From Opitutales bacterium (lineage in GTDB: Bacteria > Verrucomicrobiota > Verrucomicrobiia > Opitutales > PNEW01): a DNA stretch of 32,000 nt. The stretch covers positions 240,001-272,000 of the forward strand of contig CBDCNV010000001.1 in NCBI GenBank assembly GCA_965219535.1. The letters run 5' to 3'. A program made the translations under genes and the position numbers. The notes beneath the pieces were generated by a model. The model ran no database searches, was not told the DNA's origin, and was given only the letters and a program-made list of their open reading frames with translations. The first letter of the stretch is position 1. The number at the start of each line of letters is the position of its first letter. Shown here one piece after another: positions 4,174-19,261 of this stretch.

Positions 4174-5199
4174 ATGAAAACGGTGGTAGTTATCTTTTTG
4201 TTTGCCGGCTTTGGCTTACTCATCGGCTTGATTGCATTCTATGGACTCGAGCGGGTAGTGGATGCCTTGACTTCCTCGGGATGGGGTCTTTTTGCGATCT
4301 GTTTATTTCATCTGCTTCCCATGATAGCGGCGGCGAACTGCTGGCGCCGACTCATTCCAGGGACAACCCGCCCTTCATTTTGGACAGCGTTCACGCTGCA
4401 ATGGGTAGGGGGTTCAGTGAACTCGCTTCTGCCGGTTGCCCAGGTGGGAGGGGATTTCGTGCGCGCAAGACTGCTAACCCTCAGGGGTGTCCCCAGTTCC
4501 ATAGCGGGCGCAAGTGTCATCGTTGATCTCACGATCGCGGTTGGAGCGCAAATAATTTTTGCGTGTGGTGGGATCCTCATGCTGACTCAGTATGATAAAT
4601 TAGATAACACCACATTCGCGGTGGGAATCGGTGTAGTCATACTCGGAATATTAATTACGGGATTCACTATCGCTCAGCGGGCCGGTCTGTTTTATAAACT
4701 CACAAAAATAATTGAGAAGACTGTTAAGGTGGGTGACTGGACCGCTATAACCGGAGGCGCGCGGGCCTTGGATGAGGGGATACAATCTATTTATCGAAGT
4801 CATAGGGAATTAATAATCGCCGCCTTCTGGCGCACCTTCGGGGTTATTGTCGGATCAGGTCAAATAATGATCGGATTACATTTTCTTGGACATCCAGTCG
4901 GTGTGATCGAGGCGCTTATCCTTGAGAGCATGGTGCACGCAGTAAGAAACGCCGCTTTCATGGTACCGGCGGCGATTGGGGTACAGGAAGGGGGGCTCGT
5001 TCTCGTTGGGATGATAGTCGGTATCGGACCCGATACCGCCCTCGCGCTCTCTCTTCTAATCCGTGCCCGAAGCATCGTTATCGGCATCCCCGCTTTAATT
5101 TACTGGCAACTCGTAGAGAGCCGTCGACTCATCGCCTGGCTCAACAAGGGTGCGAAAGCAAGTGCGGATACAGGAAATTCTAATGATTCCTTAAGTTAA
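4174..5199 (+). CDS. Flippase-like / lysylphosphatidylglycerol-synthase-TM-like (UPF0104, HpnL-like) integral membrane protein
   Basis: A 341-aa polytopic protein. The segment VNSLLPVAQVGGDFVRARLL and the later AAFMVPAAIGVQEGG match my recollection of the UPF0104 flippase-like domain. Confidence 0.6.
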   Translation: MKTVVVIFLFAGFGLLIGLIAFYGLERVVDALTSSGWGLFAICLFHLLPMIAAANCWRRLIPGTTRPSFWTAFTLQWVGGSVNSLLPVAQVGGDFVRARLLTLRGVPSSIAGASVIVDLTIAVGAQIIFACGGILMLTQYDKLDNTTFAVGIGVVILGILITGFTIAQRAGLFYKLTKIIEKTVKVGDWTAITGGARALDEGIQSIYRSHRELIIAAFWRTFGVIVGSGQIMIGLHFLGHPVGVIEALILESMVHAVRNAAFMVPAAIGVQEGGLVLVGMIVGIGPDTALALSLLIRARSIVIGIPALIYWQLVESRRLIAWLNKGAKASADTGNSNDSLS

Positions 5200-5242
5200 G
5201 TGGAAAGATACTTAATCAATTGCGAAATCATTTCACTTTTTT

Positions 5243-7921
5243 TCAATCACTATCCTTTTTATTTTTATCCTCGTTATTCAACCACTTCGGCAACCGCCGG
5301 GGTAAAAAAAGGAATGCGGGTAAGACGATCAAAGTGACAGCCATCGTAAGAAAAACGCCAATTGTGAGCAACTGACCCATACTTGAAGTACCGCGGTGGG
5401 AGAGGAAGGCCAAAGTTCCGAAACTGAAAATCGTCGTCAAGGCGCTGAAAAAGATACCCCGCGCGGTGCTTGTGGCCAAGAGGCGGGTCTTATCGAGTTG
5501 GGGATCGTGAAGCCTGTGGACTAAATGAACACCATTGTCTACGCCGAGGCCAAGCAAGAGGGGAATCGCGATAATATTGGCGAAGTTAAAGGGAATATTA
5601 AAAGCCACAGTAGCCGCACCGGTAATGATTCCCGCTACGATCAACGGCACTAAAACGAGGAAGGGATCAATCGCATTGCGAAAAATTAAGAAGAGAAGGA
5701 TTAAGACCAAGACAAACGCGCTCGCGAATGCCTGTTTGAATGAGGCAACAATTGCGCGGCCCGACTCATAGATAAAAACAGGTCCGGCGGTGGCATTTGG
5801 AATGACCGACCGGACTGCTGTGACAAAGCGCTCGAGTTCGAGATTATCACTAATATCCGTGGCCGGGAAAACCTGCATACGGTAACGTTCGTCACGGCTG
5901 ACCCAAAGGTCTTTGATCGAGGCGGGTATAGCGTTCAAGGAAAAGCTTTCAGTGGTTGACAGTGCGGTACGCAATTGTTGAACGGCAAATGGTAGGGTTG
6001 CAAGGAGACTAGATTCAGTATCGCTCATAATCGATTGAACAGTTTCGGGTTTAGATGAATCCAACCGCTGATTAAATTCAATGAGTGTCGCTTCCAGTTT
6101 GCGGAGTTGTTCGCTTCGCTCTTTCATGGAGCTGTTCCCGACAGTAATAAGAAAATCATTCAGCTTCTTTCTCTGTTCAATGGCCGTGGGTGGAATCACG
6201 AGAGAGGAATCGAGAATATGAAGACCGAGAATGAGATCGATCTCCCCAATCAGAATCAGTTTTTTCGCCTGATCATCGGGAAGGTAAGTTAGAATGGAAA
6301 CAACGCGATCAACTTCCGGGAGAACCTCCAGTTGCTCGCTGAGAGCTTTAGTCTCCTCTGCGCTCGAAGCGAGGGCGATAATCGTCGAAGGATGTTTTCC
6401 CGTGTCATTTATCATATCCATTAAGATTTGGACGGATTCAGTATGGGGATCACGAAGCTTAATCGGGTCGTAATCGAAATAAGCCTTGGGCAGTAGAAAT
6501 AGAGTACCCGCGATTATAAGAGCGGAGAATATACTAACGGGCCTGCTGTAACGAATGGGCAAACGCTGCAGGAAATTGGGGTCCGCCATTTCAGTATCCA
6601 CCGCGCTCATCATCTTCTGGGATTTAGGAAGGAGATGCAGCATGGCTGGTAATAGAGTCATGCTAATGATAAAACTGATGAACATACCGGTTCCTGAAAT
6701 AAGACCAAGTTCCGATACACCGAGATAGGCGGTGGGAACAAAAGCGTAAAATCCGATGGCCGTAGAAAGGGTACAAATGCCAAGCGCGGGTGCCATGTAC
6801 CTGATAGTATTGTGAAGTGCCTCCAGGCGATTTTCGCAATAAGTGGAGAAGACGTGATAACGGAGGCAAAAGTGGATACCGTAATCGACTCCCAGTCCGA
6901 TATAAAGGACGGCAAATGCGATTGAAATTAAATTGAGGTGACCGATGGCCCAGGTCGCGAAAGCTGCGGTGTAGAGGATTCCTGCGACAAGGGACACGAT
7001 GGTGGCGAAAACCATCGGAAGGGAACGGAATCCGATTAAGAGGGAAAGAAATACGAGAATTAAAGAAACGATACCAGCGATGGTTGAACCTTTCATTAGA
7101 CTTAAGATCTCTTCATGTCCGAGAGCTGGCGCGCCGGTAACTCTTATACGAATTCCCCGTGTACCGTCGCCGGCGAGAGCTGTCCCCCAGGTGTGTATAG
7201 CTTCGAGCGCGCGTTCGGCGGGTAAGAGCTTGTTGTAATCGAACCTGAGCTTGGCCATTATGAAACGTCTGCGATCTTTGATCTCAGAATCTTTGTCGCT
7301 TAAGATATCCTGCCAGGAAAGGTAATAGGGTTCGCCATCGAGAGTCTTGCGGAACGCCTTATCGATTCGCAAAAAGAACGAGTCGAGGTTTAGATTCTCA
7401 TCATCTTCCAATACCCGCACCGCAATATCCAGCAACTCGAATAACCCTCTGAGGCTCTGATCCTGAAATAGCGCGGCGAGAAAAGGTTGCGCCTTGGCGA
7501 GATTATCCGCGAGATCCTGGAGCTTTTCGTAATCGAGAAATAGAAGACCATTAAGCTCGATAAAGGGCCCGCCGGCAGGGAGGTAAGCGTCCTCGAAAAT
7601 ATCATGTTCACCTTTGAGGAGCTCTACCAGGTCGCGCGCGGCCTGATCCGCAAATTCCGGTGTATCCGCTTCAACGACAATAACTACATTACCGGCGTGA
7701 TTTGGAAATGCCTGCTCATAATCAGCGAAAGTTTTACGGAACGAAAGTTCCGGTGATATCATCTCCGCGGTGTCTGTGTTAATCCCGAGGTTGTTCCTTG
7801 CGTAGGTAAACGCGAACCACGCAGAGACAAATGCGAAAACGACAATTGCCCAGGCGCCGCGCGCGACGAGATTTGCCCAAAGCTGGTATATCTTGGAAAT
7901 TATTGATCGATTTTCGTTCAC
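5243..7921 (-). CDS. MMPL/RND-superfamily transporter, HpnN-like
   Basis: An 892-aa protein with a GTG start. It has two blocks of about 6 TM helices, each preceded by a large periplasmic domain. The N-terminal signature LGINTDTAEMISPELSFRKTFADYEQAFPN resembles the HpnN subfamily. The subfamily call is from memory, not from a search. Confidence 0.75.
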   Translation of the reverse strand: MNENRSIISKIYQLWANLVARGAWAIVVFAFVSAWFAFTYARNNLGINTDTAEMISPELSFRKTFADYEQAFPNHAGNVVIVVEADTPEFADQAARDLVELLKGEHDIFEDAYLPAGGPFIELNGLLFLDYEKLQDLADNLAKAQPFLAALFQDQSLRGLFELLDIAVRVLEDDENLNLDSFFLRIDKAFRKTLDGEPYYLSWQDILSDKDSEIKDRRRFIMAKLRFDYNKLLPAERALEAIHTWGTALAGDGTRGIRIRVTGAPALGHEEILSLMKGSTIAGIVSLILVFLSLLIGFRSLPMVFATIVSLVAGILYTAAFATWAIGHLNLISIAFAVLYIGLGVDYGIHFCLRYHVFSTYCENRLEALHNTIRYMAPALGICTLSTAIGFYAFVPTAYLGVSELGLISGTGMFISFIISMTLLPAMLHLLPKSQKMMSAVDTEMADPNFLQRLPIRYSRPVSIFSALIIAGTLFLLPKAYFDYDPIKLRDPHTESVQILMDMINDTGKHPSTIIALASSAEETKALSEQLEVLPEVDRVVSILTYLPDDQAKKLILIGEIDLILGLHILDSSLVIPPTAIEQRKKLNDFLITVGNSSMKERSEQLRKLEATLIEFNQRLDSSKPETVQSIMSDTESSLLATLPFAVQQLRTALSTTESFSLNAIPASIKDLWVSRDERYRMQVFPATDISDNLELERFVTAVRSVIPNATAGPVFIYESGRAIVASFKQAFASAFVLVLILLFLIFRNAIDPFLVLVPLIVAGIITGAATVAFNIPFNFANIIAIPLLLGLGVDNGVHLVHRLHDPQLDKTRLLATSTARGIFFSALTTIFSFGTLAFLSHRGTSSMGQLLTIGVFLTMAVTLIVLPAFLFLPRRLPKWLNNEDKNKKDSD

Positions 7922-7996
7922 TGGTTAGTCAGGGGTAATTTTTTTTAGAAACTTAGTCGAAAGTTACAACCTGCATCGTGCGATGAACGGTTGTTA

Positions 7997-8069
7997 GTCA
8001 AAAAGTCAAAAGGTCAAAAAGTCAAAATGGGGGAATGACGAGTGAACAGTGAACAGTGAATAGTGGATT
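7997..8069 (+). repeat. Modular word array: (GTCAAAAR)x4, GGGGG, spacer, (GTGAAYA)x3-4
   Basis: GTCAAAAA GTCAAAAG GTCAAAAA GTCAAAAT lies at 7997-8028 and GGGGG at 8029-8033. GTGAACA GTGAACA GTGAATA GTGGATT lies at 8042-8069. Confidence 0.85.
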
Positions 8070-8128
8070 TTCCGAGTGCATACATCTATTCAATATTTTG
8101 CAAAATACTGGACGATTAATTCATTCCT

Positions 8129-8197
8129 CCGCTTTCACGCATCTTCGCTTATTCGCATCTCCGCATTCACGCATCCTCGCATCTCCGCTTTCACGCG
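8129..8197 (+). repeat. TTCACGC/CGCATCTTCGC word array running into the stop codon of the aminotransferase gene
   Basis: The sequence is CCGCTTTCACGCATCTTCGCTTATTCGCATCTCCGCATTCACGCATCCTCGCATCTCCGCTTTCACGCG. The 19-mer CGCTTTCACGCATCTTCGC (8130-8148) is identical to 19271-19289. Confidence 0.85.
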
Positions 8198-9546
8198 TCA
8201 GTGTCACCTAAGCTGGGGCCGCCGCTGCGGTCGCCGACGTTAGCGAAGATTGATTTTAAAGCCGGGCCTTCCAATAATTCAACAACATTTCCATCCTCGA
8301 TCGCTTTATCAACCAATTGTAACACGCGTTCGTAAATAGGCATCGTGTCATCGATTATCTCCTGGGTGTGCGCCAAGTTCATAAAATGGTAACCAATGAA
8401 GAGCAGCCCGTGCCGGATACACTCCTGCTGAAAAAGACTTTTTATTTCACTGTAATCGTAGCCCCCCGCAGCTTTAAATGTGACTGTGGTTTTTGGCGGA
8501 TAACCTTCAAGGGAAATATAGGAAATACCCAATTTCTCGGTTAGTGCTTTGAAACGCTCTTGTAAATGTTTACCGCTTTCCCAGATTTTTCCGATCACAT
8601 CGTTGTCGCGCATATAATTGATACACGCTATGGATGCGGCCATCCCGGTCGTCTCACCGCTGAAGGTACAGGAATAAAAAACATTCTTATCATCAAAATC
8701 TTTCATCACCTCACGTTTTCCGACGAGTGCTGAGATCGGACTGCCATTTGCCATCGCCTTACCAAAGCAAGCGAGATCAGGTGTTACCCCGAAGTATTCC
8801 TGCGCGCCACCCATTGACCACCGAAATCCAGTAATAATTTCATCGAAGACAAGGACGGCGCCCGCTTTGTGGACCAACTCCTTTACTGTTTCCAAATAAC
8901 CCGGGTGAGGTTCTTCAACATAGACGGGCTCCATAATCACGCAGGCGACATTACCTTCATTTTCAGCGAGGAGCGTCCTCAGGCCATCGAGATCATTATA
9001 GGAAAAGGATTTGGTTAAATCGCGTACCGCCTGGGGTATCCCGGCATTGCGTTCGGTCGATCCAATGTACCAGTCCTGAAAGCCGTGATAGCCACCGCAG
9101 AGTACGACATCACGTCCGGTATGGGCTCGCGATAAGCGTACCGCAATGCTCGTGACATCGCTTCCGTTGCGCCCCATTCTCACCATCTCGGCACAGGGTA
9201 TCAACTCGCAGAGCAATTCACTGAGCTCGACTTCAAGCGGATGACAGAGACCAAACACGTGGCCGTCTTCCAATTGCTTTTTGACCGCGTCGTTAACCGC
9301 GGGATGACCGTATCCTAAGATATAAGGCCCCAGGCCTGAAGCGTAGTCAATATACCGGTTACCGTCGACATCGTAAACATAAGCACCTTCACCACGCTGA
9401 ATAAAGTTAGGGGTGACACCTTGAATCCAGTTTTGTGGTCCACGGCTCAGGGTATTGGTTGTTGACGGGACAACTTTTTTTGCCCTTTCAAAATATTGGC
9501 GCGAGCGTGTTAAAGTTCTCTCTTGTGAGGAAGTGCTAGTACTCAT
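8191..9546 (-). CDS. Class-III (PLP) aminotransferase, glutamate-1-semialdehyde aminomutase-like paralogue
   Basis: Contains GGYHGFQDWY, VLVFDEIITGFRWSMGGAQEYFGVTPDLACFGKAMANG (PLP lysine in FGK), and MEPV. Length is 451 aa. Confidence 0.8.
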   Translation of the reverse strand: MSTSTSSQERTLTRSRQYFERAKKVVPSTTNTLSRGPQNWIQGVTPNFIQRGEGAYVYDVDGNRYIDYASGLGPYILGYGHPAVNDAVKKQLEDGHVFGLCHPLEVELSELLCELIPCAEMVRMGRNGSDVTSIAVRLSRAHTGRDVVLCGGYHGFQDWYIGSTERNAGIPQAVRDLTKSFSYNDLDGLRTLLAENEGNVACVIMEPVYVEEPHPGYLETVKELVHKAGAVLVFDEIITGFRWSMGGAQEYFGVTPDLACFGKAMANGSPISALVGKREVMKDFDDKNVFYSCTFSGETTGMAASIACINYMRDNDVIGKIWESGKHLQERFKALTEKLGISYISLEGYPPKTTVTFKAAGGYDYSEIKSLFQQECIRHGLLFIGYHFMNLAHTQEIIDDTMPIYERVLQLVDKAIEDGNVVELLEGPALKSIFANVGDRSGGPSLGDTDA

Positions 9547-9591
9547 GGGAATTTTGTTTTCGGGTTTTACAATTTACAATGAACGATTTAA

Positions 9592-9616
9592 CCTTGATTC
9601 TTCAACCCAATCAAGG
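9592..9616 (+). promoter_or_regulatory. 8-bp hairpin (CCTTGATT / AATCAAGG, 9-nt loop) whose 3' arm overlaps the Shine-Dalgarno sequence of the downstream small ORF
   Basis: The arms are 9592-9599 and 9609-9616. The SD AAGGAGG is at 9613-9619 and the ATG at 9626. Confidence 0.3.
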
Positions 9617-9625
9617 AGGTAATCT

Positions 9626-9883
9626 ATGAAACTTAATGTTAAAGCGTTTGGACTGGCCTCAGGTATTCTCTGGGGAGTAGGTGTGTTTTTACTGGCGTGG
9701 TGGCTGATCATCCTAGAAGGATCTTCTGGTGATCCCACTGCTCTCGGGCGTGTCTACAAGGGGTTTTCAATCAGCCCTCTCGGCAGCGTCATCGGTCTGG
9801 TCTGGGGATTTTTCGACGGGCTTATCGGCGGGCTCATATTCGCCTGGCTCTATAATAAGTTAGCGTCTGGATCTCAAGCGTGA
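9626..9883 (+). CDS. Small (85 aa) glycine-rich two-TM membrane protein, function unknown
   Basis: Has a strong SD (AAGGAGG, 6 nt before ATG). Two hydrophobic segments are visible: GLASGILWGVGVFLLAWWLIIL and GLVWGFFDGLIGGLIFAWLY. Confidence 0.55.
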   Translation: MKLNVKAFGLASGILWGVGVFLLAWWLIILEGSSGDPTALGRVYKGFSISPLGSVIGLVWGFFDGLIGGLIFAWLYNKLASGSQA

Positions 9884-9975
9884 ACGCGGGAAAGCGTGTA
9901 CGCGTAAATGCGGGAAAGAGTGAATGATATAACTGGAGGGACGCGCGAGAACGCGTGTAAGCGTTGATGCGGATA
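9878..9975 (+). repeat. GCGTGAA/GCGGGAAAG word array starting inside the last codons of the small ORF
   Basis: The sequence is GCGTGAACGCGGGAAAGCGTGTACGCGTAAATGCGGGAAAGAGTGAATG...TGGAGGGACGCGCGAGAACGCGTGTAAGCGTTGATGCGGATATG. It contains the 14-mer TGGAGGGACGCGCG (9934-9947), also found at 19208-19221. Confidence 0.8.
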
Positions 9976-9983
9976 TGATTGAA

Positions 9984-10048
9984 GTCAAAAGGTCAAAAGG
10001 TCAAAAAGGGGGGAGAGACCTGTTGTAGTGAACGGTGAACAGGGAAAA
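9984..10048 (+). repeat. Second copy of the modular array: (GTCAAAAG)x3, GGGGGG, spacer, (GTGAACR)x2 plus GGGAAAA
   Basis: GTCAAAAG lies at 9984-9991 and 9992-9999, GTCAAAAAG at 10000-10008, and a G-run at 10008-10013. GTGAACG GTGAACA GGGAAAA lies at 10028-10048. Confidence 0.85.
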
Positions 10049-10110
10049 TTCTCCGCTTTTCCTCTTACACGCTTCTACGCATAATCGCGGAAACGTGGTA
10101 ACGCGTTACC
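10049..10110 (+). repeat. Complementary-word array (CCGCTTTTCC, CTTACACGC, TTCTACGC) ending in a perfect 14-bp palindrome GGTAACGCGTTACC that overlaps the dapL stop codon
   Basis: CTTACACGC (10064-10072) is the reverse complement of GCGTGTAAG (9953-9961). The palindrome lies at 10097-10110, and the dapL stop is the complement of 10106-10108. Confidence 0.7.
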
Positions 10111-11341
10111 GCAGAACTTCGCTGATGCGTTCCATCGCGAGGGTCACGTTTTCGCGATTGTTAAAAGCGCTGAGGCGGATATGACCTTCTCCGCAGGATC
10201 CGAAGCCGGAGCCGGGAGTAGTGACGACACCCGCTTTTTCGAGGAGTAGATCGAATGATTCCCATGAATCTTTTCCGGTGTACATCCAGATATAGGGTGA
10301 GTTATCACCGCCGACACAGTCATAACCTAACTTGGTAATCGCCTCGCGAATAACACGGGCGTTTCCGAGGTAATAATCGGTGAGATCTCTTACTTGTTTT
10401 TGCCCCTCGGCAGTGTAAACTGAAGCCGCGGCTTGCTGCACGGGATAGGACACCCCGTTCATTTTTGTGCTTTGTCGGCGGTTCCACAAAGGGTGAATCA
10501 GCTGTTCTCCCCCTTGGCTGTCACTTGCTTTTAAATTTTCAGGGATGACCGTAAATGCACAACGAACGCCTGTGAAGCCCGCTGTTTTAGAAAAGCTCCT
10601 GAGTTCGATCGCTACATCTTTGGCGCCCTCGATTTCATAAATAGACTGCGGCAGTGCCTCATCGCGGACATAACTGACATAGGCGGCATCATAAAGGATG
10701 ATCGCTTTATTCTCCCTCGCGTAATCAACCCACTTTTTCAGCTGATCCTTTGTTACCATCGCCCCCGTAGGGTTATTGGGAAAACAGAGATAAATTAAAT
10801 CCATCGTCTCATTTGGAATCTCTGGAATATAATGATTTTGCGGAGTGGAATCGAGATAGACCACATTTTCAAAACGTCCATTGTGCTCAGTTCCGGTACG
10901 ACCTGCCATGACATTAGTATCGAGGTAAACCGGATAGACTGGATCGGTAATCGCAACTTTCGTATCGATGGCAAATATTTCCTGGATATTCGCGGAGTCA
11001 CACTTGGATCCGTCACTGACAAATATTTCATTCGCCGAGATGTCCGCACCGCGTGACTGAAATTCATTTTTCGCGATCGCCTCTCTTAAAAAATCGTAAC
11101 CCTGTTCGGGTCCATAACCACGAAAAGTATCCCGTTGCCCCATTTCATCGACGGCGGCATGAAAAGCATCGAGACAGGCTTGGGGCAGGGGCTCGGTGAC
11201 ATCGCCAATACCCAGTCTGATGATTTCCTGATCCGGATTATTTTTCTGATGAGCTGAAACGCGATTAGCAATTTCTAAAAAGAGATAAGACGCCTTCAGC
11301 TTGAGGTAGTGTTCATTGATGATAATCATAGTCGGTATCAA
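10106..11341 (-). CDS. dapL: LL-diaminopimelate aminotransferase
   Basis: The N-terminus [21 protein letters not shown] is the DapL hallmark NxNYLKLKAGYLFPEI. Also contains [17 protein letters not shown] (PLP Lys) and a class I/II aminotransferase fold. Length is 411 aa; the true start may be a few codons downstream. Confidence 0.8.
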
Positions 11342-11420
11342 TCGCTTAATCTTGTCGTTTTAATGAAATTTTGATCTCCTCATATTTTGAAGCTAAGAAC
11401 TGTACGGAGGATCCTGGCAA

Positions 11421-12263
11421 ATGCAAACAATTGAATCTATAAACGAGATGCAATCGTTAGCAATTAACTTGCGAAGCGAAAAGAAGCTCATCGGTTTCGT
11501 CCCAACTTTGGGGGGATTACATGAAGGGCATCTGAGTCTTGTCGACTATGCGAAAAAAAAAGCTGATGTCGTGGTGGCTTCGATATATTTAAATCCCGAA
11601 CAATTTGGGCCGAATGAGGATTTTGATCGCTACCCGCGAACGATGGAGAATGACTTAAGTCAGCTCGAAGAACGTAAAGTGGATTTTGTATTTATCCCCG
11701 ATACAAAAAGCATCTATCCGGACGATCATTCAACTTATTTGGTGGAGGAAAAATTGAGTGCTGGGTTATGCGGGATATCAAGACCCGTTTATTTCCGCGG
11801 CGTGGCCACTGTTGTAGCGATCCTCTTTAATATCGTGCGTCCGGATTTCGCGGTATTTGGTCAAAAAGATGCCCAGCAATGCGCGGTCATTAAAAAATTT
11901 GTACGCGACTTGCGATTTCCGATTGAAATCGACGTGTGCCCGACGGTTCGTGAAAAGGATGGCCTGGCGATGAGTTCGCGAAATGCCTACATGGATGATG
12001 TCCAACGCAGAGAGGCCTGTGCGCTCTATCAATCGCTTCAAAAGGTTGAAAAAATGATTCGTGGAGGTGAGAAAAGTGTGAATCGTATAATTGAAGAAAT
12101 TACTAATTACCTATCAGCATTTTCGCACCTGCGTTTAATCTATGCATCGGTCGTGCATCGCGACTCGCTGGAACCGCTTGGAGAGATAGCTCCCGAGCAG
12201 TCTCTGGTTGCTATTGCCGCCTGGTGCGACGATATACGAATTATCGATAACATTGTCATCTAA
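11421..12263 (+). CDS. panC: Pantoate--beta-alanine ligase
   Basis: Contains VPTLGGLHEGHLSLV (HxGH), FGQKDAQQ and SSRN motifs. Length is 280 aa, with an ACGGAGGA SD upstream. Confidence 0.9.
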   Translation: MQTIESINEMQSLAINLRSEKKLIGFVPTLGGLHEGHLSLVDYAKKKADVVVASIYLNPEQFGPNEDFDRYPRTMENDLSQLEERKVDFVFIPDTKSIYPDDHSTYLVEEKLSAGLCGISRPVYFRGVATVVAILFNIVRPDFAVFGQKDAQQCAVIKKFVRDLRFPIEIDVCPTVREKDGLAMSSRNAYMDDVQRREACALYQSLQKVEKMIRGGEKSVNRIIEEITNYLSAFSHLRLIYASVVHRDSLEPLGEIAPEQSLVAIAAWCDDIRIIDNIVI

Positions 12264-12284
12264 AAATAAAATCACAATCCGTTC

Positions 12285-13892
12285 ATGGAACATGATTACG
12301 ACGTCATTGTAGTAGGCAGTGGAATAGCCGGCCTCAGTTTTGCGCTCAGGGTAGCGGAAAAAGATTACACGGTTGCGATTATTACTAAAAAAACCCGGGC
12401 TGAATCCAATACCAATTACGCCCAGGGAGGTATTGCCTGTGTTACTTCAGAGGGAGATGATTTTGAATTTCATGTGCGCGATACACTTGAAGCGGGTGAC
12501 GGTCTTTGTGATGAGTCGGTGGTGCGCGAGATTGTCAATGACGGTCCGGCCCGCATCCAGGAATTAATTGATCTCGGGGTGCATTTTTCCCAACTCAATG
12601 ATGGGCGCCCCTCGCTGGGAAAAGAGGGGGGGCATTCTAAACGACGCATACTCCACGTCCAGGACATTACAGGCAAAGCAATCGAGTCAGCGTTACTGGG
12701 AGCGGTCGCGCGGATGAAAAACATTACGACGCTCGAGCATTTTTTTGCCATTGATTTGATAAAACGCAGCACTCTCGTCGAGGGTGTTGATTCTACTCCC
12801 GGTAGTGACGATAAAGCGGTCGGTCTCTATGCGCTCGATGTTCGTACAGGTGTGGTCGAATCGTTCCGATCGAGAGTGGTGTTAATGGCTACAGGTGGAG
12901 CGGGCCAAGCCTATCAATATACGACGAATCCCGATATCGCTACGGGTGATGGAATTGCAATGGCTTTTCGCGCGGGGGTTGAGATTGAGAACATGGAATT
13001 TATTCAGTTTCACCCGACGACGCTCTATACCAACTCCGATGAAAGGTTCCTCATCAGTGAGGCCGTTCGTGGAGAGGGGGCAATCTTACGCAATACAGAT
13101 GAGCGGGCGTTTATGAAAAATTTTCATCACCAAGCTGATCTCGCGCCACGCGACATCGTTGCGCGTGCGATCGATAGTGAAATGAAGCAATCGGGCGCCC
13201 ACCATCTCTGGTTGGATATTACCCATCATTCAGCTGAAGTTCTCGAAGACCGTTTTCCCACGATCTATAATACCTGTATCCAGCACGGGATCAATATGGC
13301 ACAAGATTTTATTCCCGTCGTGCCCGCGGCCCATTACCTGTGCGGTGGGATTAAGACAAATACGCACGCCGTAACCAGTTTAAACGGACTTTTTGCCTGT
13401 GGCGAAGTTGCCTGTACGGGGTTACACGGCGCCAATCGCCTTGCGAGTAATTCACTCTTAGAAGCGGTTGTTCTCGCTCACAATGGAGCTGAAAAAGTAT
13501 TGAATTATTTGGAGCGGAATAAGGAGGAGACTTTTGATCTACCCGACTGGATTGATGGTGATGTGCAAGACAGTGATGAACGCGTGATCCTTTCTCATAA
13601 TTCAGAGGAATTAAAACGAGCGATGTGGGACTATGTTGCTATAGTCCGCACGACTAAACGCCTGGAACGAGCGCAAACGCGTATTCAAAACCTCGCTAAA
13701 GAGATAGCTGATTACTATTGGAATTTTAAAGTGGAACCACGCCTCCTTGAACTACGCAATCTAATCCAGGTCGCTGAGCTTATTGTTAAATGCGCTCTTC
13801 AGCGAAAAGAGAGCCGGGGGCTCCACTATGTATTAGATCATCCCGAGAAAAACGCTGAACCGGAAAATACGTATATGCGGAAAAGCGATTGA
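12285..13892 (+). CDS. nadB: L-aspartate oxidase
   Basis: Contains the VIVVGSGIAGLS FAD dinucleotide motif, FIQFHPT, and ACTGLHGANRLASNSLLE. Length is 535 aa. The last codons (YMRKSD) overlap GCG-word sequence (GTATATGCGG). Confidence 0.9.
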   Translation: MEHDYDVIVVGSGIAGLSFALRVAEKDYTVAIITKKTRAESNTNYAQGGIACVTSEGDDFEFHVRDTLEAGDGLCDESVVREIVNDGPARIQELIDLGVHFSQLNDGRPSLGKEGGHSKRRILHVQDITGKAIESALLGAVARMKNITTLEHFFAIDLIKRSTLVEGVDSTPGSDDKAVGLYALDVRTGVVESFRSRVVLMATGGAGQAYQYTTNPDIATGDGIAMAFRAGVEIENMEFIQFHPTTLYTNSDERFLISEAVRGEGAILRNTDERAFMKNFHHQADLAPRDIVARAIDSEMKQSGAHHLWLDITHHSAEVLEDRFPTIYNTCIQHGINMAQDFIPVVPAAHYLCGGIKTNTHAVTSLNGLFACGEVACTGLHGANRLASNSLLEAVVLAHNGAEKVLNYLERNKEETFDLPDWIDGDVQDSDERVILSHNSEELKRAMWDYVAIVRTTKRLERAQTRIQNLAKEIADYYWNFKVEPRLLELRNLIQVAELIVKCALQRKESRGLHYVLDHPEKNAEPENTYMRKSD

Positions 13893-14000
13893 GGGATGCG
13901 TGGAATATTGGAAGAATGGATGTGTGGATGATTGGAAGCGGAGATGCGTGAATGTGGGGAAGCGTATAAGCGGATAAGCGGGGATGCGTGGAAGCGGGAT
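13893..14000 (+). repeat. GCGTGGAA/GGAAGCGG word array (left arm of a long imperfect inverted repeat)
   Basis: GGGATGCGTGGAA occurs at 13893-13905 and again at 13981-13993. Bases 13945-13973 are complementary to 14131-14159 at 25 of 29 positions. Confidence 0.8.
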
Positions 14001-14020
14001 ATCCGAATTTATTTTATATA

Positions 14021-14128
14021 AGGTGGAGCGGGCTGCCTGACCGCCATAGCTTCAAGCAACGGCTGGTTCTCAGCACGCTTCTTTAATTTCGACTTGATCT
14101 AACGCGCTAGGGACAGCGCGTTCCACCT
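14021..14128 (+). mobile_element. MITE-like / structured repeat element, copy 1 (108 bp, terminal inverted repeats AGGTGGAGCG...CGCGTTCCACCT)
   Basis: It shares AGGTGGAGCGGGCTGGTTCYCAGCACGCTTCTTTA and AACGCGSTAGGGACASCGCGTTCCACCT with the reverse complement of 16200-16278. It carries an extra 30 nt (14036-14065) bounded by a GGCTG direct repeat, and it is flanked by TA on both sides. Confidence 0.7.
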
Positions 14129-14130
14129 TA

Positions 14131-14159
14131 CCGCATATACGCTTCTCCGCATTCACGCG
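14131..14159 (+). repeat. Complementary-word arm CCGCATATACGCTTCTCCGCATTCACGCG overlapping the OsmC stop codon
   Basis: This is the right arm of the 25/29 inverted repeat with 13945-13973. CCGCATATACGC is the reverse complement of GCGTATATGCGG at 2893-2904. Confidence 0.8.
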
Positions 14160-14608
14160 ACCCGCGTATCCACCGTCACTTCGGTGGTTACGGAATTAGC
14201 GATAAAGCACTCGCGATGGGCTTTATCGTGCAGGGCATTCAGCTCCTCTTCCGAGGGTATTTTTTCTCCACTAAATTGGATGGTTGGCTTTAGCGTGACT
14301 TGAGTGACGGCCATTCTACCGGATTCATTTTTACCTAATATTCCGACAGCCTCGTCGACATAACTGTCGATCGTAAATCCCTGGTAGGAAGCTATGGCTA
14401 AAAATGTAAGCATATGACAGCTGGATAAGGAGGCTACATAGGCATCTTCGGGATTAACGCATTCGGCTTTACCTAAATAGCCAGGCGCGGCTGAGGCCTG
14501 AACTACGATTCCGTTTTCGAAATTCCAGGTGTGCTCCCGATTGTAATTTTTATATTGGAAGTCATCACTTTCGCGACTCCAGTTTACGCTTACTTTATGT
14601 TCGGACAT
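14153..14608 (-). CDS. OsmC/Ohr-family peroxiredoxin-like protein
   Basis: A 151-aa protein with two conserved-type cysteines (SLSSCHMLTFLAIA and AHRECFIANS), typical of the OsmC family. Confidence 0.75.
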   Translation of the reverse strand: MSEHKVSVNWSRESDDFQYKNYNREHTWNFENGIVVQASAAPGYLGKAECVNPEDAYVASLSSCHMLTFLAIASYQGFTIDSYVDEAVGILGKNESGRMAVTQVTLKPTIQFSGEKIPSEEELNALHDKAHRECFIANSVTTEVTVDTRVA

Positions 14609-14610
14609 GG

Positions 14611-16039
14611 TCAGCTAATTAATATGTTTTGTATATAATCATAAATACCACGGATGCCCCAAATAGTGAGAAATGACCCGCTGATCACATTGAGAATGAG
14701 CAATGTTTTTCCCATTTGCAGGGGTTTAGGCAAATATTTGCGATCGGTCCAGATCATCAGAAAACACCATAATCCGCAGGTTAAAACTCCACCGAAAATA
14801 GCCGCGGGGGTTACAATTTGAACAGGATTTCCACCCAGCCACATAATTGCCAATCCTCCCAGCCCACAATAGGCGACCACCCAAGGTCTGAGCTTAGCGA
14901 TTGGGACATTGCGTATGCGGGGGACGATCGGACGCAGGCATTCATAAGTTGTCCGAGTATAGAGTTCATAAGCGGCGAAGATGGTCCCAAAGAATGCCAT
15001 GAAGACACCAATTTGATAAAGATAGATTAATTTAGGATGAAGTAAGGTCAGGAACTCAGCCTGAACGGAGAGCAGTTGGAGGCCGTCAGGAACAATGTGT
15101 TGAGGGTGAAGGATGGCCGCCCCGAGGACCATAAAAGCAATCGTGAAGAGGACAACACAAGAAAAGGAAACGACGGCATCGGTGAGAGGCGCGATCAGCC
15201 ACCTTCGGCCCACTTTTACATTATCTTCATCGACGGCCAGACTCACCCCTTCAGGACCGACATCATTTTTGCGGTTAAGGAGTCCCCAGCCTTTTTCACG
15301 CAGCATTCCCAAGTAACCAAAGTAATCCTGCGTGCCGCCCCCTATCGCGCCTAAATAAGTGCCCAGTTCGATCCAGGCTGACCTTGAGCTGATCGCCGGA
15401 TAGGCTGGCGTGAACCCAGGCTTCGTAAGTCGGCTTGCTCGGAATTACCGCACCAAGAAACGCGGCCAGCCAGTCAGGTTTAATCGCAAAGACCGCAACT
15501 AAAATGCAGGCCAGTAGTATGGAGACGACAAATGTCTGTGTGATCTCCAGAGCTTTATAACTTTGAATAAAGGTCAACGTGACCGCGACAAAGACAATCA
15601 TGGTCCCCCACACCCTTGGATCTCCCCAAAGGGTACCACTATCCATATCGAATATCCATACCATCAGTGATCCGAGCATTTTAGGAAGTCCGGATAACCA
15701 AAGGGGGAAACAGAGAATGCTTATAATCGTCAGCGTCCAGACCGCCCACCCATGCGGCCCCGGTAAATACTTCCAGCGCTCAATGGGATGCTCACCGGTC
15801 AGGGTAATATAACGTGACGCGGTGTATACCTGGACAAATTTCATTAACCCGCCGCCAATAAAACACCATAGGAGAGTATAGCCAAAAAGAGCCCCGCCGC
15901 GCGAAGCAAATACAGTTTCACCACTACCAATAGTGACGGAGGCTATGATTGCACCCGGACCAAAAAATCGGAGCAAAGTGAGAAAGCTTAGTGATTTCAG
16001 TCCTTCAGTTAAAGGGGGGTAACGCAGAGGTTCATTCAT
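14611..16039 (-). pseudogene. Nramp-like (APC-fold) transporter interrupted by a frameshift (ORFs 15296-16039 and 14611-15312)
   Basis: The N-terminal ORF (FGPGAIIASVTIGSGETVFASRGGALFGY...) reads as a good membrane protein up to about PSKPTYEAWV. It then degrades into a basic, non-membrane tail (SLDRTGHLFRRDRGRHAGLLWLLGNAA). The other frame is open from 15444 and reads ...YPAISSRSAWIELGTYLGAIGGGTQDYFGYLGMLREKGWG, continuing into the C-terminal ORF, whose track start is only a TTG. The two frames differ by one base. Confidence 0.6.
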
Positions 16040-16199
16040 AGGTTATACAGGAGCTTGTGAGGATGATAAGAGGACAGCAAGGTTTAGGTCATGGGTATAA
16101 TCCTCGGTCGTCGATTGTCGATTGAATTTTATTTGCACCTGGTGTCGACTTGATCGACAAGGTCACTTGCTCTACCCTGTAACAATGAATAATGCAATA

Positions 16200-16278
16200 A
16201 GGTGGAACGCGGTGTCCCTACCGCGTTAATTGAAAGTAATTAATAAAGAAGCGTGCTGGGAACCAGCCCGCTCCACCT
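16200..16278 (-). mobile_element. MITE-like / structured repeat element, copy 2 (79 bp, inverted relative to copy 1)
   Basis: The reverse complement reads AGGTGGAGCGGGCTGGTTCCCAGCACGCTTCTTTATTAATTACTTTCAATTAACGCGGTAGGGACACCGCGTTCCACCT. It aligns with copy 1 over both ends, and the central roughly 16 nt is divergent. Confidence 0.7.
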
Positions 16279-16326
16279 AAATTATTAAAATTGATTTCTA
16301 AAGACTAATCAGTAATCTTAGCCCTA

Positions 16327-16815
16327 ATGCAGGCTTGGATTGAAACAGTGTTGGTTAACTTGGGTTATATATTAATGATCGAGCCAACGGGCGTCCATTT
16401 TTATATACTCTCCGGAGTCGCAACAGGCAGTTTTCTCATATTTGGAAAACTGATTGCTGCTTATCTGGTTGGCAGCGAAAAAGGATTTTTACTGGTTTTT
16501 CTCGGTATGTTGATCCCCCTGATCTTGATCGTGGCGGGATTAACTTTGGCTGACCTTTATCTTGTTCATCATATTAAAAGTGAAACTTGGCAACTAGTGG
16601 TAAAAATCAGCACCGGCACAACTCTTTTTTTGTTCATTGGTGTTTATCTAGCTAAGCTTTTATTCTCTATTGAGTGGGGCAAGAGCCTGGCGGCAATCAT
16701 CCTGACTTATGGGATTACCTTTGCCGGATTGTTTTTAACGAAGTCGGGAATAGAGGCATTTTCATCCGGGGCTTCGGTCGTCGATAAATATCAGGAAAAT
16801 CGCGCCGAGGAGTAG
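16327..16815 (+). CDS. Hypothetical polytopic membrane protein (162 aa)
   Basis: Has four to five hydrophobic helices and no motif I recognise. Confidence 0.4.
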   Translation: MQAWIETVLVNLGYILMIEPTGVHFYILSGVATGSFLIFGKLIAAYLVGSEKGFLLVFLGMLIPLILIVAGLTLADLYLVHHIKSETWQLVVKISTGTTLFLFIGVYLAKLLFSIEWGKSLAAIILTYGITFAGLFLTKSGIEAFSSGASVVDKYQENRAEE

Positions 16816-16850
16816 GCCGCCTCATAAAGACCACAACGTGTAATTTCTGG

Positions 16851-16867
16851 TAGGAATTATATTCCTA
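16851..16867. promoter_or_regulatory. Dyad site 1: TAGGAA-TTATA-TTCCTA
   Basis: A 17-bp dyad with perfect 6-bp arms and a 5-nt spacer, read directly. Confidence 0.4.
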
Positions 16868-16888
16868 TCTTGTGGGATCCGAATCAGA

Positions 16889-16905
16889 TAGGAATATATT
16901 TCCTA
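16889..16905. promoter_or_regulatory. Dyad site 2: TAGGAA-TATAT-TTCCTA (19-bp dyad with flanking A/T)
   Basis: Same half-sites and spacing as site 1, with centres 38 bp apart. Confidence 0.4.
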
Positions 16906-16958
16906 TTAAGATTTCGCTTCTCTTTCGGTCGTTCCCGAGGATCTGAGGTTATTCAGTT

Positions 16959-16989
16959 AATTAAGTAATTGGTAACTAATTACTTAATT
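16959..16989. promoter_or_regulatory. Dyad site 3: AATTAAGTAATT-GGTAACT-AATTACTTAATT
   Basis: Perfect 12-bp arms separated by a 7-nt spacer. Confidence 0.35.
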
Positions 16990-16992
16990 CTC

Positions 16993-17015
16993 TACTAGGA
17001 AGTAATTACCTAGTA
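16993..17015. promoter_or_regulatory. Dyad site 4: TACTAGG-AAGTAATTA-CCTAGTA
   Basis: Perfect 7-bp arms. The spacer reuses the AAGTAATT word of site 3. Confidence 0.3.
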
Positions 17016-17096
17016 AGTGTGTAATCCTATCAATAATTCGTTCCCGTAATCTCATATATTATTGGATGTCAATATCATGCCAAACTAAGTGAAAGC

Positions 17097-17112
17097 TGGC
17101 ACAGGGTCTGCT
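17097..17112 (+). promoter_or_regulatory. Sigma-54 (RpoN) type -24/-12 promoter upstream of fliA: TGGCACAGGGTCTGCT
   Basis: Matches the consensus TGGCAC-N5-TTGC at every position except the first T of TTGC. GG lies at 17098-17099 and GC at 17110-17111, which is the correct spacing. It sits 84-99 nt upstream of the fliA ATG. Confidence 0.5.
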
Positions 17113-17195
17113 TAAAGAACGACACGTCAATATAAAATTCAGCAGGAGAAACTACACCTGTAACCGAACAACACAGAGAAAGAACAGAATCTATC

Positions 17196-17978
17196 ATGAA
17201 AACAGTGATCATAAAATTTAATGGCCAACCCCAGGCGCAAAACGAGATGACCGCGAAGAGGGAGGAAGAGACAAAAAATATGGATATAGTTGAAAGCTAT
17301 CTCCCTTTAGTAAAGCGCGTGGTAAAGAAGATTATGAAAAATCTACCTTCTCATATTGATTCCGACGATCTGCACAGTGTGGGTGTATTAGGTTTAATAG
17401 CAGCAACGCAAAAATATGACCCGCTTCAGGGACATACTTTTGAAGCTTACGCAGCGATGCGCGTGCGCGGCGCTATTCTCGATGAGTTGAGGCGTCTTGA
17501 CAATATGCCAAGAACGGCACGCGCCAAATACCGTCAGCTACAAAAAACGGTAGAGATTTTAGAACAGCGGTTCGGCCGAACACCAGAAGATGAAGAGATA
17601 CGGGAGGAAATGGGTCAGAGCACGAAAGAATTCAAACGGATGATGAAGCAAGTCATACCGGTAAACTTTGTATCCCTCGATCGTTCGTATCATGTAAGTG
17701 AATTCAAGGAGCCAGACTTACACGAGGCACTCGCAGACAATCAGCAAATACCCAGTTGGGAAATGATGCAAAGGGATGAAATGCGAGAGCTCATGACTGA
17801 ATGTTTAAAACAACTCCCCGACCGCCAGAAAAAAATATTGTCGATGTATTATTTTGAGGACATGCGATTAGGTGAGATCGCCGAGGTATTCAGTGTGACT
17901 GAAGCGCGCGTTTGCCAGATTCACGCCAAGGCTGTAGCTGCACTGCGAAATTCGGTATACAGTGCGATGAATCGCTAA
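17196..17978 (+). CDS. fliA: RNA polymerase sigma factor FliA/WhiG (sigma-28)
   Basis: Contains YLPLVKRVV, DDLHSVGVLGLIAATQKYDP, FEAYAAMRVRGAILDELRRLDNMPR (region 2), and LGEIAEVFSVTEARVCQIHAKAV (region 4.2 HTH). The true start could be an internal Met (MTAKREE or MDIVESY). No other flagellar genes are in the window. Confidence 0.85.
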   Translation: MKTVIIKFNGQPQAQNEMTAKREEETKNMDIVESYLPLVKRVVKKIMKNLPSHIDSDDLHSVGVLGLIAATQKYDPLQGHTFEAYAAMRVRGAILDELRRLDNMPRTARAKYRQLQKTVEILEQRFGRTPEDEEIREEMGQSTKEFKRMMKQVIPVNFVSLDRSYHVSEFKEPDLHEALADNQQIPSWEMMQRDEMRELMTECLKQLPDRQKKILSMYYFEDMRLGEIAEVFSVTEARVCQIHAKAVAALRNSVYSAMNR

Positions 17979-18188
17979 GATGATCTAAAGGATAGATTGC
18001 TCCCGGTTGAGTTCATCTCTCATTGCCATTTAATAAGGGTGTCGTGAATCTTACAACCCAAGGTAGATTGGGTTCCACCCTGATATTGCAGCTCATATAA
18101 TGTGAAAAGCTGGCTGAGAATGGCCCGCATTCGAAGAAATTAATAAATTATTTGCGTTAGATTGAGCACCGGTTATTTTAAGGGTGAG

Positions 18189-18202
18189 AGCTGATATCAG
18201 CT
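18189..18202. promoter_or_regulatory. Perfect 14-bp palindrome AGCTGATATCAGCT just upstream of the hydrolase gene
   Basis: Read directly. It lies 12 nt before the TTG at 18215 and 21 nt before the ATG at 18224. Confidence 0.25.
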
Positions 18203-18214
18203 TTTCTAGCAATA

Positions 18215-19087
18215 TTGAGAGCGATGCTCGAACGCACACAGTTTACCTGGATACCCACATTTTTCATGATAGTGATTGTTCTCTGTGGGTGTCGATCGAT
18301 GCCGGATAAGACATTATATGTAAGTGAGAAATTTGCGTCAGGTATAATGCCTGCATTTCATACTTATCGCATCGATGGCCGCACTATTCATTATGCTGAT
18401 ATCGGTGATGCCAGTTTGCCCTTGGTAGTCTTTGTTCACGGCTCACCCGGATCGTGGAAAACTTTTGCCGGCTTCATGGCCGATCCCTATCTCCAGGGTA
18501 AGGTTCGTATGATAGCTGTTGACCGACCCGGTTTTGGTCAATCGGAATCTGGCCGTGAAGTTAAATCGCTTAAACGTCAAGCTGCCTTGCTGAAACCGAT
18601 TCTCGATCGCAATCGCTCCGGATCAGGTGCGATCCTAGTCGGGCACTCATTCGGTGGGCCGGTTATCTCGCGCATGGCGATGGATTATAGTGATCAAATC
18701 GGCGCGCTGATTATGGTATCACCGACCATTGATCCTGAACTTGAGAACACATTCTGGTATCAGCATCTTGTTAAAGTACCACTTCTCCAAATATTGATAC
18801 CGAAAAACCTTACCACGGCTAATCAGGAAATTCTTCCACTAAAAGGGGAACTTGAAAAAATGGTTACCCATTGGAACGAGATCCATGTCCCGGTATACTT
18901 GATTCACGGTGAACGCGATCGTTTGGTCTCACCGGAGAATGCGGAATTTGCTGAACGGATGCTAGTCAATGCGGAACTTAAGGTTTATCGCATGCCCGAG
19001 CTCAATCATTACATACCTTGGACGCGTCCCGATTTAATTAAATTCGCGATCATCGATCAGTTGGAAGAGCGGGTTTCATTCAACTGA
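18215..19087 (+). CDS. Alpha/beta-fold hydrolase, probable lipoprotein
   Basis: Contains the GHSFGG nucleophile elbow, VFVHGSPGSW, and HGERDRLV. The N-terminal MLERTQFTWIPTFFMIVIVLCGC looks like a signal peptide with a lipobox (LCGC). The likely true start is the ATG at 18224. Confidence 0.75.
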   Translation: MRAMLERTQFTWIPTFFMIVIVLCGCRSMPDKTLYVSEKFASGIMPAFHTYRIDGRTIHYADIGDASLPLVVFVHGSPGSWKTFAGFMADPYLQGKVRMIAVDRPGFGQSESGREVKSLKRQAALLKPILDRNRSGSGAILVGHSFGGPVISRMAMDYSDQIGALIMVSPTIDPELENTFWYQHLVKVPLLQILIPKNLTTANQEILPLKGELEKMVTHWNEIHVPVYLIHGERDRLVSPENAEFAERMLVNAELKVYRMPELNHYIPWTRPDLIKFAIIDQLEERVSFN

Positions 19088-19096
19088 TGAAGTTAT

Positions 19097-19205: not shown

Positions 19206-19261
19206 TTTGGAGGGACGCGCGTGGCCCTACAGGTATACATTTGAAAAGCCTTCCCGCATTG

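Follow-up and report, generated by a model that had tools for sequence, protein, structure and literature searches.

A composite of octamer and heptamer arrays recurring in intergenic spacers of Opitutales-like Verrucomicrobia

Two intergenic spacers in a 32,000-nt stretch of an Opitutales bacterium (Verrucomicrobiota; GenBank assembly GCA_965219535.1, contig CBDCNV010000001.1, positions 240,001 to 272,000 of the forward strand; the whole stretch is called the window hereafter) carry the same composite of short repeats, consisting of (GTCAAAAR)3-4, a run of G5-6, a linker of 8-14 nt and GTGAACR heptamers. Copy 1 lies at 7997-8197, between the start of an MMPL gene and the stop of an aminotransferase gene, and copy 2 at 9878-10110, between a small open reading frame (ORF) and dapL. 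Comparison with related genomes showed that the composite has been copied between spacers and is rapidly remodelled by slippage, by block insertions and deletions (indels) and by the insertion of small hairpins. We consider it moderately probable that it represents a low-copy mosaic repeat resembling bacterial interspersed mosaic elements (BIMEs) and short tandemly repeated repetitive (STRR) sequences, copied between spacers, remodelled by slippage and found only in Opitutales-like Verrucomicrobia. On present evidence it is not a new biological system and constitutes a local variant of the intergenic-repeat theme. The features of the two spacers are the following.

Copy 1
7997-8028, plus strand: octamer array, four GTCAAAAR units, seen in the sequence and by Tandem Repeats Finder (TRF)
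8029-8033, plus strand: G5 run, followed by the type III linker AATGACGA to 8041
8042-8069, plus strand: heptamers GTGAACA, GTGAACA, GTGAATA and GTGGATT, hypervariable among orthologues
8070-8128, no strand: AT-rich non-repetitive core of 59 nt, outside the shared composite and absent from copy 2
8129-8197, plus strand: CGC-word array, eight words of period 8 (NNNCGCWT), abutting the aminotransferase stop (8191)

Copy 2
9878-9975, plus strand: GCG-word left arm, beginning on the stop of the small ORF
9984-10007, plus strand: octamer array, three GTCAAAAR units, seen in the sequence and by TRF (period 8 at 9984-10006)
10008-10027, plus strand: G6 run (10008-10013) and type II linker AGAGACCTGTTGTA
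10028-10048, plus strand: heptamers GTGAACG and GTGAACA (10028-10041) and a degenerate GGGAAAA, in the loop of an inner hairpin
10049-10096, plus strand: CGC-word right arm, complementary to the GCG-word left arm
10097-10110, no strand: 14-bp palindrome GGTAACGCGTTACC, overlapping the dapL stop (10106-10108)

Every module named in the original prediction is present where it was placed, including the exact reverse complementarity of GCGTGTAAG (9953-9961) and CTTACACGC (10064-10072) and the palindrome on the dapL stop, and in copy 1 TRF also returned period 8 at 7996-8027 and period 7 at 8041-8065. The view that the spacers are not random repeats was borne out as well: the octamer pair and the heptamer pair occur in no other spacers of the window (shuffle expectation 0.00 and 0.10, respectively), and the full composite pattern was found at these two sites only, vs 0 in 100 shuffles. 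The statement that both copies hold the same modules applies to the octamers, the G-run and the heptamers; it does not extend to the 59-nt AT-rich core, which copy 1 alone possesses. The CGC words, which had been counted as a module, proved to be the right arm of separate GCG/CGC palindromes. Such palindromes occur in many spacers without the composite, copy 1 has no GCG-word left arm, and next to the copies with a type I linker the CGC words are replaced by other sequence, often a doublet resembling the REP doublets known as REPINs (REP, repetitive extragenic palindromic).

The composite was then sought in a 596-Gb genome collection with one genome per species, in which about 0.1 matches are expected by chance according to our own estimate. 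Five matches were obtained, four of them in two metagenome-assembled genomes (MAGs) titled Opitutales bacterium (two strict copies each); the fifth, inside a coding region of Maricaulis, was discarded as a chance match. Regular-expression and nhmmer core-profile searches covering 0.95 Mb of comparison loci (designated L003, L128 and so on) yielded at least 12 full copies, spread over at least 8 Opitutales-like contigs, and every contig with a full copy also carries the REPIN-like element of this lineage. Moreover, a 57-nt composite core is identical between L131, a syntenic relative with 90% amino acid identity, and the Opitutales MAG CBDANS01, and the window is accordingly Opitutales-like DNA. 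Further copies with an unshuffled module order, as envisaged in the original prediction, therefore exist, and the order is constant within the lineage.

Across these copies the core spans ~45-65 nt and comprises two to four GTCAAAAR (or GTCGAARG) octamers, G4-7, a linker of 5-15 nt and a run of GTGAACR-type heptamers. The G-run is usually read as GGGGGAGA and is conserved across three linker subtypes, the conserved junction being (A)AAAGGGGGAGA. Linker type I is AGAATCA (L003, L006, L007, L028, L102 and L105), type II is AGAGNCCYGTTGYNA (window copy 2, L128 and L131, the L131 core being identical to that of L005) and type III is ARTGRCGA (window copy 1 and L128). Octamers precede heptamers on one strand in 8/8 adjacent array pairs of Opitutales-like loci, and the opposite order was seen only in unrelated contigs. 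Given a G-run with heptamers, at least three octamers stand upstream in 7 of 12 distinct instances, and several others have GTCGAAGG-type words there. The octamer array alone is not diagnostic, because many unrelated organisms carry it: a metagenome scan for (GTCAAAAR)3 alone returned at least 120 stretches, many from unrelated organisms, and among the matches listed 117 of 179 such arrays lack both G-run and heptamers. One unrelated set of contigs (L018, L045, L062 from human gut, L071, L108 and L120) bears (GTCAAAAG)n arrays that pair into hairpins with TTTGAC complements and are followed by GTGAAA/GTGAAT-type arrays without a G-run; L062 had no match in a phage collection.

How the copies change was followed in the syntenic relatives of the window, L128, L129/L130 and L131/L132, whose aminotransferases share 98%, 92% and 90% amino acid identity with that of the window and which show 84-96% nucleotide identity in the neighbouring gene. 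The aminotransferase genes of the window and L128 align at 95.5% identity with 0 gaps, vs 29% gap columns in the two spacers. Copy 1 has 3.5 heptamer units in the window, 11 in L128 and 7 in L129. Its spacer in L128 contains three octamers (four in the window), one GTGAACA followed by (GTGGACA)10, and five CGC words (eight in the window); in L129 it contains GTGAACA, GTGGACA and (GTGGATA)5, with a GTCGAARG array encoding the C-terminus of RsfS at the position of the octamers; and in L131 it holds a different GCG/CGC palindrome without G-run or heptamers. The core at 8070-8128, which includes a perfect palindrome TATTTTGCAAAATA at 8094-8107, is nearly invariant in the L128 and L129 orthologues as the surrounding arrays change, and may represent a site for a protein or some other small element. 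In the copy-2 spacer, L128 has one heptamer fewer than the window, is missing ~58 nt of the left arm, a segment that includes the REP-like motif GGAGGGACGCGCG (9935-9947 in the window), and carries a 30-nt hairpin inserted after the GTCA of the first octamer. The same spacer has two octamers, no G5 and no heptamers in L129, and three octamers with G7 at the opposite spacer end, again without heptamers, in L131. Of the palindrome GGTAACGCGTTACC, the window and L131 have a perfect version and L129 an imperfect one, and L128 has lost the left half.

The original prediction had argued for a dispersed element rather than independent slippage. The first half of this claim stands, as order and strand recur at non-orthologous loci, and the second half needs to be reworded, as slippage is the main mode of remodelling; with 3.5, 11 and 7 heptamers in close relatives, it is not an alternative to a dispersed element. 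Slippage acting independently in each spacer is not the source of the common order, because the ordered core recurs in other genomes at non-orthologous loci.

Copying between spacers was observed in L131, where the divergent Nramp/hyp162 spacer has a type II copy, in which a GCG-word left arm leads into four octamers, G5, AGAGCCCCGTTGCCA and heptamers. In this spacer the REPIN-like doublet stands in place of the composite in the window, L128 and L129. Of 164 spacers compared, and leaving orthologues aside, the L131 Nramp/hyp162 copy matches window copy 2 best, with a score of 81 (median 20), vs 62 for the orthologous copy-2 spacer of L131 itself. The locus represents a replacement of spacer content, and a possible TTTAA duplication there is indistinguishable from chance. 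In addition, the block of GT4, LPG synthase and MMPL genes is flanked by RsfS and the aminotransferase in both the window and L128 and by a tRNA and ExoD in L131, and in L129 the aminotransferase directly faces RsfS. The rearrangement sites are at 801-1036, 2780-2975 and 7922-8190 of the window and at 11357-11666, 13800-14153 and 18865-19400 of L131, and 3/3 breakpoints of the block fall in word-array spacers. Since the block moved with all its breakpoints in array spacers, ectopic recombination or gene conversion is favoured, and we infer that the composite was most plausibly copied in this way, through the word arrays common to many spacers, some form of transposition being less likely. Such copying from spacer to spacer is rare; the copies are then remodelled fast by gain, loss and homogenisation of units through slippage and by block indels between short direct repeats, and REP-like hairpins of ~30 nt insert in specific words of the copies.

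The composite belongs to a wider landscape of arrays. Many window spacers share a small vocabulary, with GCG words (WWGCGNNN) on the left and complementary CGC words on the right, together with GTCSAARG and its complement, TAACACT, the REPIN-like doublet and small REP-like hairpins. Together, the GCG and CGC arms constitute genuine long inverted repeats, and several such spacers fold well (19088-19315, -95.6 kcal/mol, z -7.4; 13893-14160, z -4.6; 860-1060, z -3.1). Among 87 spacers of related loci, the median fold z was -2.5 for array-bearing vs -1.1 for array-free spacers (p = 0.007). Arrays abut stop codons at 8191, 9883, 13892 and 19087. In the comparison loci, a biased sample with crude gene calls, period-7/8 arrays occupy ~9% of intergenic vs ~0.4% of genic bases and are present in 58% of the spacers between convergent genes, vs 34% and 35% of tandem and divergent spacers, respectively.

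Two further kinds of element sit among these arrays. The REPIN-like element, which marks Opitutales-like contigs and has no Rfam match, has two REP-like hairpins, inverted relative to each other, on either side of an AT-rich spacer and stands at the apex of word-array palindromes. It was also seen in L003 (~1510), L006 (~4380 and ~858), L007 (~2823), L017, L091 and L097, and its copies in the window are the following.

14020-14129, plus strand: REPIN-like element, ~80-110 nt, with ends AGGTGGARCG...CGYTCCACCT
16199-16278, inverted: second window copy of the REPIN-like element

The second kind comprises the ~30-nt REP-like hairpin insertions, located at 2843-2873 and ~14036-14066 in the window, ~9478-9507 in L128, 2613 in L003, 2737 in L007 and ~13605 in L129, with two copies in L023 and several in L069. 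Their targets appear to be specific words: one subfamily, CCAGCCGTCGCCAAGGCTATGGCCGGCAAG, always splits GTCA|AAAG octamers, another, ACAGCCGCCGTCGCTNCGCTATGGCGTGCCAAGG, lies between GTGAACA heptamers, and a third is found within the REPIN-like element. Additionally, a REP-like hairpin GGAGGGACGCGCG...GGCCCTCC recurs at the centres of GCG/CGC palindromes (9935-9947 and 19209-19221 in the window; the copy-1 and copy-2 spacers of L131; L136 4624-4726), and a small dispersed hairpin TACCGAGGGCGNNGCCCGACATCTTCC occurs in array-bearing spacers of L003 (~1555-1640 and 2660), L049 (~1560) and L105 (~270). The arrays also reach into genes: the 3' codons of RsfS (2792-2826) are a GTCAAAAG/GTCGAAGG array that gives a tail rich in Lys, Ser, Val and Glu, and the 3' end of NadB is likewise array-encoded in L005 and L131. 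A separate heptamer array, (TAGGAAT)6, occupies 28263-28311 in a 71-nt spacer of 21% GC between two minus-strand genes.

With regard to RNA structure, the two copies behave differently. The whole copy-2 spacer folds with z -3.15, and across all four genomes it gives strong folds (z -3.4 to -7.2) despite differing content. Its inner stem pairs CCTGTT (10019-10024) with AACAGG (10038-10043), GGGGAG pairs with TTCTCC (10049-10054), and a compensatory change replaces CCTGTT/AACAGG of the window by CCCGTTG/CAACGGG in the type II copy of L131. In copy 1, GGGGGAATGA (8029-8038) can pair at 9 of 10 positions with TCATTCCTCC (8121-8130), a closing stem that is present in the constrained fold with a z-score of only -1.5, and the whole spacer folds no better than shuffles (z +0.7 and +0.2). 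On the reverse strand most copies present a C-run followed by U4-7. The core adjoins or lies inside long imperfect GCG/CGC-word palindromes that start at stop codons, at least as we would reconstruct it, and would supply them with a tract rich in A or U and with a stem of the G-run and CTCC, so that the whole spacer could act as a 3'-end hairpin stopping, insulating or stabilising transcripts in either orientation. A structural, orientation-tolerant contribution to 3'-end hairpins is thus the likely role. The core often appears to lie within 3' hairpins, and a dedicated protein-binding or terminator role would go beyond present evidence.

Several observations weigh against the interpretation of the composite as a copied and dispersed mosaic repeat. 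Strict copy number is low, with two copies per genome in two related genomes (relaxed counts are higher), so that the label of a dispersed family rests on small numbers, and an extra 18.4 kb of flank from the window contig contained no composite and almost no arrays. The orthologous comparisons revealed neither a target-site duplication nor terminal inverted repeats nor a clean empty site for the core, and no transposase is linked to any copy within the DNA examined; given these absences, it is the copying that the comparisons establish, and its mechanism that we infer. Most comparison loci were picked for containing (GTCAAAAR)3 and their gene calls are crude, which makes them a biased sample. 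The window contig is a ~300-kb metagenome contig from ENA with ~5x coverage, and homopolymer and unit counts of the window itself are possibly erroneous for that reason; the architecture of its copies was also seen in relatives with higher coverage. The Nramp gene, a single 475-aa gene in L128, L129 and L131, is split in the window into two overlapping ORFs (14611-15312 and 15296-16039), and given the ~5x coverage this split at 14611-16039 may be an assembly indel.

The part of the interpretation that concerns 3' ends also meets difficulties. Copy 1 and its orthologues fold no better than shuffles (z 0 to +1.1), and pairing of the G-run with a downstream partner is not significant (median z -0.18, n = 16), for which reason a general closing stem of the G-run was dropped; individual closing stems remain in copy 1, copy 2, L028 and L102. 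Orientation is mixed: a same-strand stop directly precedes the copy in the L003/L007 family and L105, copy 2 and the copies of L028 and L129 are in convergent spacers, those of L131 and L102 are in divergent spacers, and copy 1 and that of L006 lie upstream of and antisense to a gene. The tabulation of positions therefore did not sustain the idea that copies are confined to gene 3' ends or hold one orientation, and mixed orientation, together with arrays in 35% of divergent spacers, implies that a terminator role is not general.

Among the other explanations, it is conceivable but unlikely that the composite is a true non-autonomous element similar to REPINs or to MITEs (transposable elements of the miniature inverted-repeat type), with a transposase encoded elsewhere and the arrays serving as subterminal binding words. 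Presence and absence between sister genomes and the near-copy at a non-orthologous spacer would agree with this, as would the imperfect inverted GCG/CGC-word arms of type II copies, the REPIN-like doublets and word-targeted ~30-nt hairpins of the same genomes, nearby insertion sequence (IS) elements, and the reported richness of Opitutus terrae in GTAG REPs (PMC3733652). It is opposed by the lack of terminal inverted repeats or target duplications common to the copies, by arms that are specific to each locus and missing from type I and type III copies, by the low strict copy number, by the L131 case being a replacement and not a clean insertion, and by the fact that none of the copies has a linked transposase in the DNA examined. 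A more far-reaching reading, in which an active miniature mobile system of Verrucomicrobia, targeted by sequence, uses the word arrays as landing pads for the ~30-nt hairpins, and the composite order is kept as the same machinery, a RAYT-like (REP-associated tyrosine transposase) or other enzyme, recognises or makes the composite, is a speculation to which we would give a small chance; if true, it would be a second, independent case of the small-dispersed-repeat phenomenon of Nostoc, in another phylum.

A decidedly doubtful alternative takes the arrays as iteron-like binding sites of a lineage-specific DNA- or RNA-binding protein, the order being kept by the need of two proteins or two domains to stand adjacent. 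Order and strand are indeed strictly kept in the lineage, the GGGGGAGA junction is constant over three linker subtypes, and words are retained as flanks turn over. Nevertheless, the number of units ranges from 1 to 11 among close relatives and the sequence drifts from GTGAACA to GTGGACA to GTGGATA, unlike constrained operators; periods of 7 and 8 bp do not put sites on one helix face; the heptamers are dispensable at both orthologous L131 spacers; and no neighbouring gene is common to the copies. Iterons of replication or partition, which are direct repeats of ~17-22 bp beside a rep or par gene or an origin, were rejected in view of the 7-8-bp units, the housekeeping genes that flank the window copies (aminotransferases, MMPL, PanC and NadB) and the lack of a plasmid or phage match (0 matches in viral contigs and no plasmid BLAST match). 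The resemblance to DnaA boxes, in which GTGGATA units match 7 of 9 positions in L129 only, was treated as coincidence.

It is quite improbable in our judgement that the core is a terminator independent of factors and perhaps working in both directions; its reverse strand reads as a loop of YGTTCAC words, the C-rich half-stem TCTCCCCC and a U-rich (YUUUUGAC)n tail. CTCCCCC followed directly by T4-7 is conserved in ~15 copies, the right-hand gene ends facing the element in both window copies, closing stems can be drawn in copy 1 (GGGGGAATGA/TCATTCCTCC), copy 2, L102 and L028, and canonical terminators are not enriched in the window, where simple terminator-like sites numbered 18 vs 17.7 expected and 10 vs 14.9 expected. 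Against this, pairing of the G-run is overall no better than with shuffled flanks, loops range from 13 to 90 nt, at least three independent groups of copies face the wrong way or are divergent (the L003/L007 family, L131 and L102), and the consensus scan was empty at both copies. When the two spacers and the whole window were scanned for promoter and terminator consensus sequences, such sites were not enriched and none fell on the composites, with the single exception of a weak -35-like TTGACC within the octamers, and a reading of GAAC as a promoter of the extracytoplasmic function (ECF) type was rejected as no -10 partner was found. A mini-ORF with GGGGGAGA as ribosome-binding site, a spacer, GTG and five codons was likewise rejected: its stop follows automatically from the 7-nt period, its spacing varies from 1 to 16 nt, and many copies are antisense to plausible transcripts.

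That each spacer acquired its arrays by slippage alone, with no common origin and convergence driven by mutational bias, is very improbable, given that zero composites are expected from shuffles, that the order is never reversed in the lineage and that non-repeat junctions and linkers (GGGGGAGAATCA; AGAGNCCYGTTG with the left arm GCGTGTACGCGTAAA) are conserved across loci and genomes, even if (GTCAAAAR)3 is common in unrelated contigs (the 117 of 179 matches listed without G-run and heptamers) and GTCAAAAG arrays also lie near GTGAAN arrays in the unrelated L062 and L071. That the composite is a structured non-coding RNA, be it a small RNA or one that regulates in cis, is equally improbable. 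The fold of the copy-2 spacer and the one compensatory stem change between the window and L131 speak for it, but RNAalifold gave 0 conserved pairs over 12 copies, Rfam found only a tRNA at gathering score in the window and nothing relevant at E <= 1 over 7900-19400, and the mixed gene orientation, lack of promoter-like enrichment and hypervariable length point the other way; a discrete structured transcript is disfavoured.

Duplication of a whole gene accounts for some of the copies. In L003 (1398-1470, ~2560-2700 and 5145-5200) and L007 (504-583 and 2698-2790), tandem paralogues ending in ...GLDSWER and a stop are each followed by a composite, the arrangement being the stop, 3-6 nt, GCGC-N4-GCGC with a type I composite and usually then the REPIN-like element; here the composite was duplicated along with its gene.

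The arrays of STRR sequences, Xanthomonas and Nostoc have been known for decades with no agreed function, and the Opitutales case welds two arrays together. Its arrays evolve fast enough to be compared in near-identical genomes of a poorly studied phylum, and they offer a compact system in which to ask if slippage throws up such arrays as selfish by-products, if they serve as substrates of recombination or if they are functional structures of 3' ends, and how ~30-nt hairpins pick their target words. Besides, the arrays are candidate hypervariable strain markers for Opitutales metagenomes and a possible source of trouble for assemblers.

Among the known systems, BIMEs have an extragenic mosaic order, are a chief source of intergenic polymorphism and are targets for small insertions, and have been proposed to terminate transcription, stabilise mRNA and bind protein (PMC3333891, PMC2817692). 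Clusters of BIMEs or REPs and the Opitutales core are alike in being dispersed and extragenic with a vocabulary of short motifs in fixed order, in feeding intergenic polymorphism and in receiving other small insertions. However, BIMEs are built of palindromic units of 20-40 nt whose orientation alternates, and they number in the hundreds per genome, whereas the Opitutales core has direct words of 7 and 8 nt, no palindromic unit and an apparently low copy number. As for REPINs, the likeness concerns the neighbouring element of ~80-110 nt, which is a doublet of inverted hairpins. Opitutus terrae reportedly abounds in GTAG REPs (PMC3116915, PMC3733652); the composite core has no hairpin doublet, no GTAG tag and, in the DNA examined, no linked RAYT. 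With MITEs it shares presence and absence between relatives, and terminal inverted repeats common to the copies are lacking. The composite is therefore not a member of the BIMEs, MITEs, iterons or an Rfam family.

The small dispersed repeats (SDRs) of Nostocaceae, which Elhai and colleagues reportedly described in 2008, are said to be mobile elements of ~21-27 nt nested in tandem heptamer arrays and hairpins. The likeness applies to the ~30-nt mini-insertions and not to the composite, and the sequences are unrelated. The closest parallel is provided by the STRR sequences of filamentous cyanobacteria and the heptamers of Xanthomonas and Nostoc, which are tandem units of 7 nt over-represented between genes and near the end of the upstream ORF, whose length and sequence vary at conserved loci among close relatives, with hairpin potential and a function that is not known (PMC4692102, PMC2670836). 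The Opitutales element shows the same head-to-tail units of ~7 nt, intergenic bias and polymorphism in unit number. It differs in that those repeats are arrays of a single word, while here a conserved junction of non-repeat sequence connects an octamer and a heptamer array in fixed order, the resulting unit is met again at unrelated loci, and the words and the phylum (Verrucomicrobiota) are not those of the STRR hosts. Overall, the element fits the class of heptamer repeats, to which it adds a fixed junction of two arrays maintained at unrelated loci.

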